64,000 nt of DNA from NCBI GenBank assembly GCA_017601345.1, contig JAFNIT010000002.1, positions 11,826 through 75,825 of the forward strand, given 5' to 3'. This DNA comes from Candidatus Brockarchaeota archaeon (GTDB lineage: Archaea; Thermoproteota; EX4484-205; JAAOZP01). The position numbers and the translations under genes are program-made. The notes below the pieces were generated by a model, which did not search any database, was not told the origin of the DNA, and saw nothing but the letters and a program-made list of their open reading frames with translations. Position 1 is the first letter of the stretch, and every line of letters starts with the position of its first letter. Positions 14,702-20,751 of the stretch are shown in pieces.

Positions 14702-15523
14702 TTGTCGATAAAGATAGATGATGGTCTTCCGTTAATCGTCGTTGAGAGACGTTTTTATACAGATTATATTAGGCTAACTATCGATAGGAGCAAGTGCATC
14801 TTCTGCGATGTCTGCATGAAAGTATGCCCTAAGAACGCTGTGAGAATAGCCAGGAGGAGCGACGGCTCGTTAACCCTATCCGTCAGCGACGACTGCAGCC
14901 TATGCGGAGCATGCGAGCCACTATGCCCCCCTGGAGCAATAGTCCTCACTGTCAACGGGAGGCGTGAAAACCCGATAGTCTCTTCCAAGGGGTTTCCACT
15001 TCCACTGCCGAAGGTTGAAGTAGATTCTTCAAAATGCAAGGAAGATTGTTTCGAATGCTATAAGACCTGTCCCAGGGGCGCTTTAACAATAGACAGTAAG
15101 CATAATATTAGGGTTGACGAAAGCAAGTGTCTGAGATGCCCATGGTGCGAGTATGCTTGCCCAGAGCACGCTATAAGCGTGAACCCGCTTTTCGAAGGCT
15201 CGATAACCGTCGACGAGTCTAAGTGCGAGGAGAAGTGCGAGGCATGCGTAGAAATATGTCCTACTAAAGCACTGGCTAAAAGCGACGGCAGAATTACTGT
15301 AGACCAGAAGTATTGCATACTCTGCAACGCCTGCACCCATCTGGACGTCTGCAGGAACCGCGCGATAACAGTAGTAAGGCGTAGGATACTTCACGGCGAG
15401 GGTTTCTCAGCTGTTTGGACGAATGCTTTGAAAAACCTCTTGGGAGGAAGGCTTATTGCGAGAGAGCTCGACGCCGGAAGTCACAGGAGGCTGAGCAAGC
15501 TGGTTGAGGAGGCTAAGCTATAA
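14702..15523 (+). CDS. Polyferredoxin (FwdF/MvhB-like)
   Basis: Repeated CxxCxxCxxxCP-type motifs; C-terminal FSAVWTNALKNL resembles FwdF. Confidence 0.8.
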   Translation: MSIKIDDGLPLIVVERRFYTDYIRLTIDRSKCIFCDVCMKVCPKNAVRIARRSDGSLTLSVSDDCSLCGACEPLCPPGAIVLTVNGRRENPIVSSKGFPLPLPKVEVDSSKCKEDCFECYKTCPRGALTIDSKHNIRVDESKCLRCPWCEYACPEHAISVNPLFEGSITVDESKCEEKCEACVEICPTKALAKSDGRITVDQKYCILCNACTHLDVCRNRAITVVRRRILHGEGFSAVWTNALKNLLGGRLIARELDAGSHRRLSKLVEEAKL

Positions 15524-17958
15524 TGTCTGAAGAGCCTAGGATAGGAGTATTCGTATGTCACTGCGGTAAGAACATAGGCGGCGTAGTTGACGTAGTCAAG
15601 GTAGCTGAATACGCTAAGACGCTTCCAAACGTGGTATATGCTTCGCATAATCTCTACACGTGCTCCGATGCTGGACAGGCTGAGATAAAGAGGATCATAA
15701 AAGAATACGGTTTGAACAGGGTTGTGGTTGCAGCATGCTCACCCAAGATGCATGAGCCGACTTTCAGAGCATGCGTATCTGAAGCAGGCTTAAACCCCTA
15801 TCTCTTCGAAATGGCCAACATAAGAGAGCACTGCTCTTGGGTTCACGCCAACGACCCCGAGGGCGCCACCCGTAAGGCAATGGACCTTGTTAAGATGGCT
15901 GTTGCAAAAGCGAGGCTTCTAGAGCCATTGGAGCCGGTAATAGTCCCGGTTGAGAAAACCCTGTTGGTAATAGGTGGAGGTCTAGCAGGCATGAGGACGG
16001 CTCTCGACGTTGCAAACGCAGGATACAACGTCATACTTGTGGAAAGGTCTTCGAAACTAGGCGGTAAGACAGCAATGCTCGGAAAAACCTTTCCGAAAGT
16101 GGATTGCACAGCCTGCTTGATAAACGAGATGATAAGCAGGGTTTTAACGCATCCAAGGATAAGGGTTTTAACGCTTTCAGAAGTAGTTAGCGTAGACGGC
16201 TACGTCGGAAACTTCATCGTCACGGTTAAGAGAATGCCTTCAAAAGTCTCAGATGAATGCATCGGATGTGGAAAGTGTGTGGAAGCATGTCCCGTTGAAG
16301 TTGAGGAAGAGTTTTCGCACGGCCTCTCCAAGAGGAAGGCAATATACCTAGTTGAGAAAACCCGGGGAGGCGCCAGTTGCGAATACGGGTATGAGAAGGT
16401 AATCCATATACCTGGCCTGGTTGGAAGCCCGTTGATTGCTGCAGTCGACACTAAGAACTGTACTAAATGTGGGAAGTGCGTTGAGGCATGTCCTGTTAAG
16501 GCGATAGACCTAGAGTCACCCGGCTTAGAGGAGGCTTTTAAAGCCGGCGCAATAGTATTGGCAACAGGTTTCGACCTCTTCAATCCGGAGAGAAAACCAG
16601 AGTACGGTTACGGAAGGTTAAGAAACGTTCTTACAAGCATGGAGTTCGAGAAAATACTTACGCCAAACGGGCCGACCCATGGGAGAATAATAAGGCTATC
16701 AGACAATCAGCCCGTTAAGAAAATAGCTTTCATACAATGTGTAGGGTGCAGGGACGAGGCTACAAACATATACTGCTCGAGAATATGCTGCATGATAACC
16801 CTTAAGCAAGCAGTCCTCGTGAAGAAGAACAACCCAAACATTGATGCGACAGTCTTCTACATAGACATCAGGGCAGGTGGAAAAGAGTACGAGACAATAT
16901 TCAGAATGGCGAGAGAGATGGGGATCAGGTTCATCAGGGGCAGGCCAGACTCGGTCAGTGAGGAGAACGGCATGCTCATCGTAACGGCGGAAGATACGTT
17001 AAGCGGAGAAAGAGTAAGAACCCCAGTAGACATGGTTGTGCTTGCAGTAGGCATGCAGCCATCAGAAGGAGCCGACAAGCTCGGTGAAATGCTGAGAGTA
17101 CCCAGGGACCAATACGGCTTCTTCATGGAGGCGCATATCAAGCTAAAACCGGTTGAAACAGTCGTAAATGGAATATTCCTAGCAGGATCATGCGCAGGCC
17201 CCACCGATATACCAATGACGGTAGCCAGAGGACACGCGGCAGCATCCAAAGCACTAGTGCTATTCTCAAAAGACTTCATAGAGCTGGAGCCGATAACAAG
17301 CTACATAGACCCGATGAAATGCAAAGGCTGCCTAGCATGCACCAAGATGTGCCCCTACCAAGCACTCAAACCAGTAGAATTAGAAGGGAGGAAAGTAATC
17401 CAGGTAACGCAATCCATGTGCGCAGGCTGTGGAACATGCACAGCAGGCTGTCCCTTCAACGCCCTAAACCAGCACCACTTCACCGACGAACAAATATTTG
17501 CACAAATCGATGCGGCACTCGAAGAACAACCCAAAGAAAAAATTATAAGTTTCAATTGTAACTGGTGTTCCTACGCGGGCGCCGACATGGCTGGCGTCTC
17601 AAGATTCGAGTATCCTTCAAGCGTGAGGATAATCAGAGTCATGTGCTCAGGCAGGGTCAGCGAGAAAATGATCATAAGAGCATTTGAGAAGGGTGCGGGG
17701 ATGGTTCTTGTCGCGCCTTGTCACCCCGCAGACTGCCACTACATCAGTGGCAACGAGTGGGCTAGGAGGAGGGTTGAGTCTCTTAAGAAGAGGCTTGGTA
17801 AGATGGGGGTTAATCCTGACCGCTTATGGTTCGTCTACGTTTCTGCTGCTGAAGGGAACGTTTATCAAAATACAATTATTAAAATGCATGAATATTTGCA
17901 GAAGCTTAAGAGTGGCGAGATGGGCTGGGGCGCTGAGGAGGCTAAGGCGGTAGCCTAG
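15523..17958 (+). CDS. hdrA: Heterodisulfide reductase subunit A fused to a C-terminal MvhD domain
   Basis: RIGVFVCHCG, AACSP..HE, NIREHCSWVH, IGGGLAG FAD motif, IQCVGCRD..YCSRICC; C-terminal CNWCSYAGAD..RVMCSGRV..CHPADCHY (MvhD). Confidence 0.92.
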   Translation: MSEEPRIGVFVCHCGKNIGGVVDVVKVAEYAKTLPNVVYASHNLYTCSDAGQAEIKRIIKEYGLNRVVVAACSPKMHEPTFRACVSEAGLNPYLFEMANIREHCSWVHANDPEGATRKAMDLVKMAVAKARLLEPLEPVIVPVEKTLLVIGGGLAGMRTALDVANAGYNVILVERSSKLGGKTAMLGKTFPKVDCTACLINEMISRVLTHPRIRVLTLSEVVSVDGYVGNFIVTVKRMPSKVSDECIGCGKCVEACPVEVEEEFSHGLSKRKAIYLVEKTRGGASCEYGYEKVIHIPGLVGSPLIAAVDTKNCTKCGKCVEACPVKAIDLESPGLEEAFKAGAIVLATGFDLFNPERKPEYGYGRLRNVLTSMEFEKILTPNGPTHGRIIRLSDNQPVKKIAFIQCVGCRDEATNIYCSRICCMITLKQAVLVKKNNPNIDATVFYIDIRAGGKEYETIFRMAREMGIRFIRGRPDSVSEENGMLIVTAEDTLSGERVRTPVDMVVLAVGMQPSEGADKLGEMLRVPRDQYGFFMEAHIKLKPVETVVNGIFLAGSCAGPTDIPMTVARGHAAASKALVLFSKDFIELEPITSYIDPMKCKGCLACTKMCPYQALKPVELEGRKVIQVTQSMCAGCGTCTAGCPFNALNQHHFTDEQIFAQIDAALEEQPKEKIISFNCNWCSYAGADMAGVSRFEYPSSVRIIRVMCSGRVSEKMIIRAFEKGAGMVLVAPCHPADCHYISGNEWARRRVESLKKRLGKMGVNPDRLWFVYVSAAEGNVYQNTIIKMHEYLQKLKSGEMGWGAEEAKAVA

Positions 17959-18205
17959 TCAGGGTTTTTAAGACATAATGGGAATGATTTACGCGCGCAG
18001 GAGCATCAAAACATAGAGACCCTATCTGCACCCTTCCATCCTTATATTCACAGATGTATCTACAACTAATAGGCTCCTGACAATATATTTCCCATTTTCT
18101 CTTCATTGGGTATGTTTCTATCTTAAATTGCTTATGCTTAATCTCATCATTAAACCTCTCGTTGAGAAAGTTTCTTAATTTTTCGAAAAACTCGCTATTC
18201 ATCAT
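17942..18205 (-). pseudogene. Truncated third copy of the 19163..19846 family
   Basis: EKLRNFLNERF..QFKIET..ISCRYICEYKDGRVQIGSLCFDAP closely matches the N-terminal part of 19163..19846; similarity stops after CFDAP, just short of the convergent hdrA stop. Confidence 0.7.
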
Positions 18206-18247
18206 TTCATTTTCCTCCCATGATATCCTTAATTATTTGTTCCACCT

Positions 18248-18942
18248 TCATTTTTTAACTTCCCCTGTTTCTTTTCTTACCTTGGCTAAGAACTCTCTTT
18301 TGAACTCTTTGTATTCTTCATTTTCATGCGATCTCTTATGCTCATCGTATAGTTTAAAGGCCGTGTAAACCGCTTCAACTCTTCTCAATACTTCATCGAT
18401 TATCTGTTCTTCTGTCATACCTTTTGAGTCAAAGAGTGACATGAAAAAGGAGTCGTATCCGGGGTTTATATAGTATATCACTTCCGCGGAAAACTTCTTG
18501 CTTACCCTCTTAACCACTTCATCTGCCCAGTATGCCGATATAATGAACCAATTATAGGGCTTTTTTCGATATCTTTTTCGAGGTACTTTTCCCACCTCCT
18601 GTTTACCACATCATTAAGTATTTCTTCTTTCTCTTTGTTGAATGCGGCCCATATTTTCTCTTTTTCTTCCTTACTTTTCGCTTCTTTAATTTTAGGTTCG
18701 TAAAGTGGGTATATCATAAACCAAATTCCATCATCCCAATCATCTACTACGTGGGTTGATACTCCAATCCTTCCATCAGTGAATCCGATAATTCCAAAAC
18801 CTCCATACATAGATGTGTTTATACGCCATTTTTCATCTTTAAAAACAGGGTTGGTATCTAACTCAAAGGGTTCAAACCATTTTATTTTACTTTTATACTT
18901 CTCGTTTAGTATGTCCCTCAACTTCTCAGACAGTTGGCTCAT
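18248..18942 (-). pseudogene. Frameshifted second copy of the 19163..19846 family
   Basis: ORF 18502..18942 supplies the N-half (..KEKEEILNDVVNRR) and ORF 18248..18595 the C-half (KPY..WAD..KKF..FDSKGM..RVEAV..KLYDE); frame changes around the A6 run at 18561-18566. Confidence 0.75.
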
Positions 18943-19162
18943 GTTCCTAGCCCTCCTTAATTGAAGAACCCTTCACCGATGCCTTCATCCTAATTTTATG
19001 ATAATCGTACAATCTTTTTAAACATCACTCCGATTTCAGTTTCTATAACATTAGAGTCAGGAAGCTTTTAAGCGAGACTTAGGGAGCAAGTTTTATTTTT
19101 CATCCCAGCATGACTAAAAATAAGATTCCGCAAAGGAAAACTCTTAATCGAGTGTTTTAAAA

Positions 19163-19846
19163 CTATCTTTGACCAGCCTTTGATCTTTCCAGCATTTCTC
19201 TGTGGAACTCTTTGTATCCCTTCTTGAAATCCTCGTCGTAGAGCTTGCGTGTAGCCGAGACTGCCTCAACCCTCTTCTTTATTTCTTCGAACTTGCGTTC
19301 CTCATCCATGCCCTTCGAATCGAAGGAGGAGATGAAATATGTTCTCCAGTGGTGGCTTGTCACGTCGATGAAGACTTTAACCTCAACGCCGAACTTCTTG
19401 CCGATTTCTTCAGCTATTTTGTCAGCCCATAATAGTCTTGTGAAAACACGTCCGTAGGGCTTCCTAATGTGCTTCTCGATATTCCTCCTATTTATAAAAT
19501 CGTCCAGTATCTCTTTCTCTTTTCTATCTATCTTAGCGAAGACCTCCTCTTTCTTCGTCTTGAACTCGCGTTGATGAAGCCTAACCAAAACCTCGCCGAC
19601 TTCATCCCCAGGAGCATCGAAGCATAGAGATTCTACTTGCACCCTTCCATCTTCATATTCATAGATGTATCTGCAACTAATGAATGCTCCAGTCCCTATT
19701 TCCCACCTTCCCCGCGCCAATTTTTTTTCATTTTCGTCATAACACATTACATCTCTTGTTTCTATTTTAAATTGCTCAGTATTTAGTTCATTCCTGAACC
19801 GCTCATTAAGATAGTTTCTCAACTTTTCTAGTAAGGCTTGACTCAC
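19163..19846 (-). CDS. Uncharacterised protein, candidate immunity protein (intact copy of a three-copy family)
   Basis: 227-aa ORF starting 4 nt after the nuclease-like ORF; paralogous to the two downstream broken copies. Confidence 0.75.
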   Translation of the reverse strand: MSQALLEKLRNYLNERFRNELNTEQFKIETRDVMCYDENEKKLARGRWEIGTGAFISCRYIYEYEDGRVQVESLCFDAPGDEVGEVLVRLHQREFKTKKEEVFAKIDRKEKEILDDFINRRNIEKHIRKPYGRVFTRLLWADKIAEEIGKKFGVEVKVFIDVTSHHWRTYFISSFDSKGMDEERKFEEIKKRVEAVSATRKLYDEDFKKGYKEFHREMLERSKAGQR

Positions 19847-19849
19847 TTC

Positions 19850-20524
19850 TTAGTCTCCTCTTATAATCATAGCAACCAACTCGTCTACACTCTTTTCCAT
19901 TATGTCAGACCTCTTAAATATTACTATGAATGGATTCCTATAATTACCCACGAACTCTGGGTAAACATCACTTAAGAGTAAGTGTACAGGGTCGTAAGCA
20001 AGTGAAGCCGCAATTCCGGCGTAAGCATTCAGGTTTTCTCCAATATGATCCTTAAGATCAGCTATTGCCCTTTCTATTTGTTCCCTAAACTGGCCCACAT
20101 TATCTGCTAGCGTTGTACTCCCAACCTCCACAATTGCGATTTTAGTTTCTTTAGGAATAGTTTTCCCTTCTATAACTATCTCCTTATTTGTAATCACATA
20201 GATATCAGGAAATCCAGGTCTCCCATATCCTTCTCCACTAGGCTCCAATCTCAAACTATCTGGGGAGATTTTATATGCTTCAGCAAACTTAGCAAGAATA
20301 CTGTCCTTATACTTCTCTCTAAGCGTAATTTCGCCAATCACCCCTATTTGCCATTTATGTGCTTCTGGGTCCTCTATTATATTGCAGAGCATCATCTTTA
20401 CCTTTATCTTCGAAGACTCTTCTAAAGAAACTATGTGTACTGTTTTTAATGTTTTGGCTTCCTGGGGTACATGGACTGCTAGCCTTTTGTTTCCACAATA
20501 CTTACCAGGACCCCGGTTCTCCAA
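19850..20524 (-). CDS. PD-(D/E)xK nuclease-like protein, candidate toxin domain; true start uncertain
   Basis: GVIGE helix, GFPDIYV, IVEVGS and Q..RAI..L pattern typical of the restriction-endonuclease fold; N-terminus overlaps the KaiC-like remnant. Confidence 0.5.
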   Translation of the reverse strand: MENRGPGKYCGNKRLAVHVPQEAKTLKTVHIVSLEESSKIKVKMMLCNIIEDPEAHKWQIGVIGEITLREKYKDSILAKFAEAYKISPDSLRLEPSGEGYGRPGFPDIYVITNKEIVIEGKTIPKETKIAIVEVGSTTLADNVGQFREQIERAIADLKDHIGENLNAYAGIAASLAYDPVHLLLSDVYPEFVGNYRNPFIVIFKRSDIMEKSVDELVAMIIRGD

Positions 20525-20662
20525 GGTTTAAACCTTAGAACATGTTGGCTTAAGATTATCTTACCCGTCCTAAGACATTGGAGACGGGGACGATGTTTCT
20601 CTTAGACATTCCGCCGCTAAGCATTTCATCCAGTCCCGGAATACTGGTCTTACCCTTCTCAT
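20500..20662 (-). pseudogene. N-terminal remnant of a KaiC/RecA-superfamily ATPase
   Basis: GGAGGT SD then ATG at 20662; with frameshifts reads MRRV/KTSIPGLDEMLSGGMSKRNIVPVS/TGKIILSQ/LGEPG, matching the RVKTGIPGLDExLxGG..GxGKT start of archaeal KaiC-like proteins. Confidence 0.65.
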
Positions 20663-20751
20663 TTCTCAATTACCTCCAATAACTACGCCATTCGAAATAG
20701 ATTGAATAAAAGTGTTATTATTCGGTTTTAAGCTAAAAACTTTATATATTT

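Follow-up and report, generated by a model that had tools for sequence, protein, structure and literature searches.

Background

Polymorphic toxin systems have been described from bacteria, where they include CdiA-CT/CdiI, Rhs and WapA and the nuclease families Tox-REase-1 to -10 (PMC3482391). Such systems consist of a large exported protein, in which a conserved trunk and a short motif precede a variable C-terminus with a nuclease fold, and of a small cognate gene directly downstream; orphan cassettes, recombining tips and expansion within a single lineage are likewise characteristic. These features recur in an archaeal family that we describe here from one of its cassettes, which lies in a window (the whole stretch of DNA that was analysed) of 64,000 nucleotides (nt) from Candidatus Brockarchaeota archaeon (assembly GCA_017601345.1, contig JAFNIT010000002.1, positions 11,826 to 75,825). 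The cassette comprises a gene A, related to the C-terminal tips of very large proteins ("giants") in other genomes, and three members of a partner family, B1, B2 and B3. We read it, with a probability of roughly 65%, as an orphan cassette in decay, left over from an archaeal system that is specific to one lineage and appears to be built like a polymorphic toxin system.

In archaea, polymorphic toxins with DNase or RNase tips and adjacent immunity genes have reportedly been predicted computationally by Makarova et al. in 2019. The metagenome-assembled genomes (MAGs) of Brockarchaeota, which hold the closest homologues of our locus, are not known to have been described before 2021, later than that survey. 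In the literature we found no study of the tip, trunk or B families (the families of the 2019 survey were not compared). A further point of reference are the VARTIG modules of Thermococcales, in which a large protein with a signal peptide also heads a variable, recombining array of archaeal genes and which their authors likened to polymorphic toxin systems; however, the Ig domains of VARTIG proteins are hypervariable and a toxin domain cannot be recognised in them, whereas the family described here has a nuclease-fold tip and a cytoplasmic partner (PMC8416519). As of 2021, the polymorphic toxin systems that computation had predicted in archaea still lacked an experimental characterisation (PMC8416519), and archaeal toxin/immunity pairs have been tested in experiments for a haloarchaeal type VI-like system (PMC11566945). 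Judged by sequence, the present system would be one of a known type, built from undescribed archaeal families.

Results

All four minus-strand open reading frames (ORFs) that the original prediction, made from the letters of the window, had assigned to the cassette are present:

19850-20524, minus strand: gene A, the tip; 224 amino acids (aa), TTG start
19163-19846, minus strand: B1, intact member of the partner family; 227 aa, GTG start
18248-18942, minus strand: B2, diverged copy, split into an N half (18502-18942) and a C half (18248-18595) that overlap
17942-18205, minus strand: B3, third copy, truncated; 87 aa, N-terminal domain only

Three nucleotides separate the stop codon of A from the start of B1, which has no signal peptide.

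A word-based homology search with A alone recovered only A, and the link to the giants was reached via the neighbours of B homologues. B1 has 16 homologues, every one from MAGs of Brockarchaeota/Thermoproteota, and on their contigs B always starts 3-4 nt past a very large ORF, of 1601 aa in L011/L012 and, truncated by the contig ends, of at least 829 (L015), 850 (L016) and 484 aa (L010). It is to the final ~210 residues of the giants that A shows homology (tblastn, residues 1412-1598 of the 1601-aa protein of L011, E 6.6e-14). A profile of the tip gave 55 matches among 1.8e9 representative proteins; the tip ends at the C-terminus in all the long ones, and the short ones are fragments or orphans. 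The homologues with long secreted N-terminal regions that the original prediction had proposed to look for are thus in hand: proteins of 1360-1740 aa with a signal peptide and a C-terminal tip, 33 of which, all from Brockarchaeota-like archaea, have a trunk in common.

The giants are composed of a signal peptide, a ~730-aa ectodomain, hydrophobic helices (two side by side and a third ~100 residues further) and a trunk of ~470 aa, which the junction motif LFRLLGYDALKELE connects to the ~210-aa tip; the motif LK.xLFRLLGYDALKELE, ~215 residues before the C-terminus, is well conserved. Hydrophobicity and charge predict an N-out/C-in topology with three helices and a strongly basic segment after the third. 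The start of the giant's gene is overlapped by a gene of ~400 aa, which encodes a coiled-coil protein with a signal peptide, a beta-rich domain and, at the C-terminus, an anchor for the membrane. Scans with Pfam, NCBIfam and PADLOC gave no meaningful match for A, B1, B2 and B3, nor for the giants, the ~400-aa protein and the alternative partners treated below. At two loci (L017:810-4018 and L042:260-2348), genes for ATPases of DUF87/HerA type or KaiC/RecA-like type (weak Pfam matches) and small genes occur just upstream of the three-gene module; other loci lack them, and any link to export would be tentative.

There are three groups of ectodomains and at least eight types of tip, which are combined freely: identity in the ectodomain correlates with identity in the tip at 0.15. 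For example, the ectodomains of P0030 and P0032 are 21% identical and their tips 76%, while P0018 and P0019 share 82% of their ectodomain and 30% of their tip. Pairs of the first kind have 21-25% identity in the ectodomain with 55-76% in the tip, and the reverse is also seen.

The partner genes follow the tips closely. With a hidden Markov model of the B family, a B ORF was detected as the next gene after the tip at 17 of the 20 loci, which removes the doubt, voiced at the outset, that homologues of the repeated family might never be found beside toxin-like genes. Tips also diverge in step with the B proteins beside them, their pairwise identities being strongly correlated (Mantel r 0.887, p 2e-4, 19 pairs). 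Other tip types have other partners: next to beta-type tips there is a convergent, internally duplicated protein of 448/523 aa (65% identical between loci), next to epsilon-type tips a repeat protein of 470/471 aa (likewise 65% identical between loci) and next to theta-type tips an unrelated 196-aa protein, each of these alternative families being conserved between two independent loci. At the level of gene neighbourhood, a cognate partner specific to the tip type therefore seems to lie immediately downstream. The beta-type partner (L017:10837-12408 and L042:8320-9666 (-)) starts 1-2 nt off the giant's stop codon and contains repeated FLRKMGFFxDYS motifs; its convergent orientation is odd for an immunity-type gene.

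The AlphaFold2 (AF2) model of B has a predicted local distance difference test (pLDDT) score of 93 and a predicted template modelling (pTM) score of 0.89. Its best Foldseek match was 3cxj (E 6e-3, probability 0.96), and nothing was found at E <= 1e-3; the next matches, below significance, were ExsC, SicP, CesT and YbjN proteins with template modelling (TM) scores of 0.4-0.53, normalised to the target. The predicted fold of B thus comes nearest to YbjN and to the alpha-beta-beta-beta-alpha-beta-beta-alpha fold of class I chaperones of type III secretion, at a level below significance.

For A, the original prediction had proposed a PD-(D/E)xK-like nuclease and a restriction endonuclease (REase) fold. 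Conserved G61, E65, D107 and E133 are kept in A, but its E-V-G-S segment is devoid of the canonical lysine, the position of which is taken by Gly135, so that the catalytic motif E...(P)D...(D/E)xK is incomplete in the window; ExK is present in the majority of the other tip types, and ExE in some giants with a tip of gamma type. The AF2 model of A, from an alignment of 23 sequences (pLDDT 87, pTM 0.79, with low confidence in the N-terminal ~35 residues), shows helices (H) and strands (E) at H57-70, E91-95, E108-112, E128-137, H143-161 and E169-176. This is the order alpha-beta-beta-beta-alpha-beta of PD-(D/E)xK nucleases, in which G61..E65 lie on a helix and D107 and E133 on strands, as would be expected. 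A REase-type core is thus predicted by the model, though with no significant Foldseek match: at the top of the list, below significance, were Cas4 SSO0001, MGME1, CidB/CinB, HincII, NucC and RecE in the PDB and PD-(D/E)XK superfamily proteins, UL24, Cas4-like and RecB/RecE-like exonucleases in BFVD, i.e. mostly PD-(D/E)xK nucleases. Across the 23 tip members, the Pfam family PDDEXK_9 weakly matches five (best E 7e-4) and Tox-REase-9 matches one (E 0.026). The A of the window itself matched no Pfam family, including those of Tox-REase and PDDEXK, and its profile gave only noise against the sequences of the PDB, plus BpuSI at E 0.1. A PD-(D/E)xK-like fold of the tip is likely.

The cassette lies, as originally described, between the following two genes:

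15523-17958, plus strand: hdrA, left flank; 811 aa
20752-21399, minus strand: HAD-family hydrolase, right flank, outside the cassette; Pfam PF00702, E 1.7e-10

The ORF of A begins where it does solely on account of a stop codon that sits immediately upstream of its start codon. DNA homology to its closest relative, in the congeneric genome G010, ends at 20504, and A is thus truncated at its 5' end. Neither trunk nor junction motif is present in it, in agreement with the earlier statement that no N-terminal delivery domain is visible in the window. Its first residues (LENRGPG) were considered as a remnant of an FDNGK motif, which the end of the homology at 20504 rules out. In the 227 bp that separate A from the HAD gene (20525-20751) there is an AT-rich, TATA-like stretch, AAAATATATAAAG, ~210 nt upstream of the TTG of A; this stretch is no evidence for a promoter of A.

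The copy in G010 also adjoins hdrA. It is a 358-aa orphan that retains ~165 residues of the trunk, including the junction motif, and next to the tip comes a frameshifted chimera of the form B1::B2. The damage to this copy differs from that in the window and affects its 3' end. Window and G010 are 97.3% identical in DNA over 19392-20504 and 92% over 18223-18501, compared with 74% over 4 kb of the hdrA flank; synonymous divergence (dS) is 0.07 in A and 1.58 in hdrA. These differences between cassette and flank argue that the cassette has recently moved between lineages, and they indicate an exchange at a common hotspot. On the other side, G010 has pmbA/tldD-like genes where the window has the HAD hydrolase; window 18223-20504 and G010:C17 (L041 6742-8115) are hence both situated at the 3' end of hdrA, with unlike other flanks. 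In the Logan contig L045 a tip 69% identical to A is attached to a trunk and followed, 4 nt on, by a B protein 72% identical to B1. From this trunk-attached tip the series of decay runs to the 358-aa orphan of G010 and to the 224 aa of the window, and by this comparison the window cassette has lost everything upstream of 20504 after the exchange. Between A and its G010 counterpart the ratio of nonsynonymous to synonymous divergence (dN/dS) is 0.23 (15 substitutions; binomial p 0.007), which suggests recent constraint that may predate the truncation.

The paralogy of B1, B2 and B3 is far above chance level in sequence comparison. B1 matches the N half of B2 at E 2e-10, the C half of B2 at E 5e-20 (41% identity, spanning KKPY, WAD, FDSKGM and RVEAV..KLYDE) and B3 at E 2e-25 (51% identity, spanning ISCRY..EY.DGRVQ..SLCFDAP), and the motifs that had been noticed as shared among the copies fall within these alignments (E 2e-10 to 2e-25). 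The similarity of the first and third copies at the DNA level is likewise real and breaks off abruptly past GATGCTCCTG. Homology of B3 stops near 18000, and the tail of its ORF runs into the 3' end of hdrA. The cassette has a G+C content of 0.36-0.40, compared with 0.48-0.50 in hdrA. Chance ORFs or an assembly artefact behind the entire array are ruled out by the E-values of the paralogy and by the many homologous loci.

The second copy, taken at first for a single diverged gene, is indeed homologous to B1 but consists of two overlapping ORFs, which are separated by a frameshift of 1 nt at a run of six A (18561-18566). The family consensus ...DIEKKPYNW... would be restored by a seventh A or by a -1 slip of tRNA-Lys. 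The split site in the window reads GAAAAAAG, and a -1 slip on the A run there would yield a whole protein. B paralogues are also split between their N and C halves at C14:27822-28506 of the source genome, at L020:12141-12837 and at G012:C112:15002-15695; decay, homopolymer sequencing errors or expression by slippage could each underlie such recurring splits. Directly upstream of the split B on C14 there is a 147-aa protein (C14:28582-29025) that looks, by eye, like a PIN domain.

Further orphan cassettes occur elsewhere. In L042 a 76-aa fragment of an alpha-type tip, without the ExK strand, precedes an intact B of 245 aa, and in L014-16 a 97-aa tip fragment is followed by a gene for a PQQ-type beta-propeller. 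On contig C22 of the source genome (35387-38516), what is left of a trunk still includes the LFRLLGYDALKELE junction; it is accompanied by a gamma-type tip broken by stops, a double B of 453 aa and a further B, which carries an in-frame TAA. The source MAG (1.18 Mb, 77% complete) contains no full-length giant, and the trunk is found in it only as these remnants on C22. A weak junction/tip fragment lies at C23:6387-6812, and a weak ectodomain-like match on C18 (24% identity over 176 aa) was rejected as a trunk.

Of 17 genomes from the same genus, 13 contain the tip, in up to 13 copies per genome, many of which lie in frames of 1400-2450 aa. Outside the genus the tip was found in one of the nine further genomes of the order, and in none of the 35 that were taken from elsewhere in the phylum. 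Going by these matches, the tip family appears as a lineage-specific expansion in one genus. All 17 genomes of the genus have B, with 2-19 matches each. In the source genome, double-B proteins of ~405 aa are encoded between a beta-glucosidase gene and proB/proA (C30:2976-4187 and C5:14814-16025), and B-like matches in frames of ~405-422 aa occur in most genomes of the genus, among them G001, G003, G004, G013, G014, G015 and G018. The genes for beta-glucosidase, double B, proB and proA follow one another in this order on both C5 (12600-18300) and C30 (500-6400), and their proteins are very much alike without being identical; the beta-glucosidase of C5 is split. The source MAG thus seems to hold two strains or a collapsed duplication.

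Discussion

How far the locus conforms to bacterial polymorphic toxins can be judged by the features that Zhang et al. (2012) gave for them. Signal, trunk and toxin in one protein are absent from the window and present in the giants of its relatives, which marks the window as an orphan cassette and not as a complete system. Variation of the C-terminus on a conserved trunk is evident from the at least eight tip types and three ectodomain groups, and standalone cassettes exist in the window, C22, G010, L042 and L014-16. In contrast to their bacterial counterparts, the archaeal members fit no Tox-REase or Imm family of Pfam by sequence, and trunk, junction, the ~400-aa coiled-coil protein and the B family match no curated model. 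Moreover, the analysis found no known secretion apparatus, the predicted location of the tip is the cytoplasm, and the archaeal host has a single membrane.

Tandem or fused copies of a single immunity family are known as homogeneous polyimmunity loci and polyimmunity proteins, for example the tandem SUKH genes (Zhang et al. 2012, PMC3482391). The tandem of diverged B1, B2 and B3 is like these loci, as are the fused doubles (453 aa on C22, ~405 aa on C5 and C30), which often occur without a complete toxin. Unlike SUKH loci, however, the window array is short, with damage to two of the three copies; the B model resembles the type III chaperone/YbjN fold, and an immunity role of B is suggested by analogy.

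It is the shared trunk and junction, the shuffled tips, the tip-specific partners, the orphans and arrays and the expansion in one lineage that lead us to read the window as an orphan tip with an immunity array. The full module of the relatives consists of the anchored coiled-coil protein of ~400 aa, the giant and a small cytoplasmic partner 3-4 nt downstream, which for most tip types belongs to the B family. We infer a nuclease activity and toxicity of the tip, which would act as an effector on nucleic acids, its delivery to other cells, and its neutralisation by the adjacent partner, which would bind the cognate tip. Spare cassettes of tip and partner would be kept and swapped by recombination, and the window would retain only such a spare part. 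Lacking trunk and junction, the tip of the window can neither be recombined onto a giant nor be delivered by one. The B array would represent a small homogeneous polyimmunity set, with B1 intact, B2 frameshifted and B3 truncated, and protection against tips of the same subtype in neighbouring strains is a plausible present role of B1. In this form, as a truncated orphan, the archaeal toxin/immunity-like system proposed at the outset gains support from the fused giants, the adjacency in 17 of 20 loci and the REase-type core of the AF2 model.

Several observations weigh against this reading. The model of A has no Foldseek match at E <= 1e-3 (the best being 1.3e-3 and 6.6e-3), with TM scores of 0.2-0.33. 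The catalytic lysine is replaced by Gly in the window and G010 and by Ala in the trunk-attached tip of L045 (E-A-A), which makes nuclease activity of this subtype uncertain. The trunk-attached copy shows the loss of lysine to be a trait of the subtype; together with the dN/dS of 0.23 it rules out that the change from Lys to Gly reflects decay of an orphan. The predicted topology suggests that the tip lies in the cytoplasm of the producer, and a cytoplasmic tip would either need some delivery step or favour a membrane-bound nuclease that serves as a sensor in defence. Neither a release protease nor a known secretion domain was found in giants and partner proteins by the Pfam, NCBIfam and PADLOC scans. 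The co-divergence of tips and B proteins could stem from linkage alone. Double-B-type frames of ~405 aa also occur in some genomes where no tip was found, so that not every protein of the B family is linked to a toxin; the double B may be either a polyimmunity protein that has become fixed or a relative with a housekeeping role that is ancestral to the family. Finally, at 77% completeness of the source MAG, its lack of a giant is not proven.

The predicted topology is also the starting point of an explanation in which the giants are no weapons but membrane-anchored sensor-effectors of an abortive-infection type of defence, the ectodomain sensing a virus or envelope damage and the cytoplasmic tip being freed from its inhibitor B, with the window as a leftover. 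The N-out/C-in arrangement of three helices with a basic segment after the third suits this explanation, as does the failure of the scans to recognise any secretion, cleavage or delivery domain, and diverse, shuffled ectodomains would be fitting for receptors. We nevertheless consider it unlikely, because arrays of partners without tips, orphan tips with trunk remnants and tip-specific partners form the signature of toxins and immunity between strains (Zhang et al. 2012, PMC3482391), while PADLOC gave only chance-level hits and the loci examined showed no consistent tie to known defence genes.

Two other explanations concern the small genes, and both appear improbable to us. B might be a dedicated chaperone or export adaptor of the tip, comparable to class I type III chaperones, instead of an immunity protein, as the best matches of its model (3cxj, ExsC, SicP, CesT, SchA, VecA and the YbjN family) and its tight coupling to, and co-divergence with, the tip would allow. 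None of these matches reaches E <= 1e-3, however, and a chaperone would serve no purpose in the absence of its client, yet B genes are more numerous than tips, are found in arrays and as fused doubles, and persist beside degenerate tips and in genomes without tips; chaperone and immunity roles are not mutually exclusive, and both may hold. A and B1 could alternatively be a self-contained, still active pair of the toxin-antitoxin kind, independent of the giants. The gap of 3 nt between them, the open frame of A (with possible starts at the TTG at 20524 and at ATG codons 44-45) and the constraint on A speak for such a pair. By contrast, the 5' end of A is a deletion scar with a stop directly upstream and ~35 residues of low confidence, the copy in G010 carries other damage, at the 3' end, the tip is C-terminal in all long profile matches, the short ones being fragments or orphans, and A lacks the canonical lysine; the apparent constraint, resting on 15 substitutions, may be older than the truncation. 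An orphan tip with its immunity array remains our preferred reading of the cassette.

Conclusions

The family provides a clean and self-contained case, with a conserved three-gene module, a sharp junction at which tips are swapped, several tip types with matching partners, and orphan cassettes at differing stages of decay. To this the window adds an end stage of cassette decay, evidence of a recent transfer of a cassette between species, and a tip subtype that lacks the canonical lysine and yet bears signs of purifying selection. The family also raises a mechanistic question, namely by which route a tip that looks cytoplasmic would reach its target across a single-membrane envelope. Tentatively, and at somewhat less than even odds, we suggest that this Brockarchaeota-like genus may have evolved its own system of toxin delivery between cells, entirely from undescribed families: a coiled-coil anchor, a trans-membrane giant, tips with a nuclease fold and immunity proteins with a chaperone fold. 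In the cytoplasm the tip would stay in complex with its partner up to the moment at which the ectodomain meets another cell, and the subtype of the window would act without the canonical lysine of the catalytic motif.

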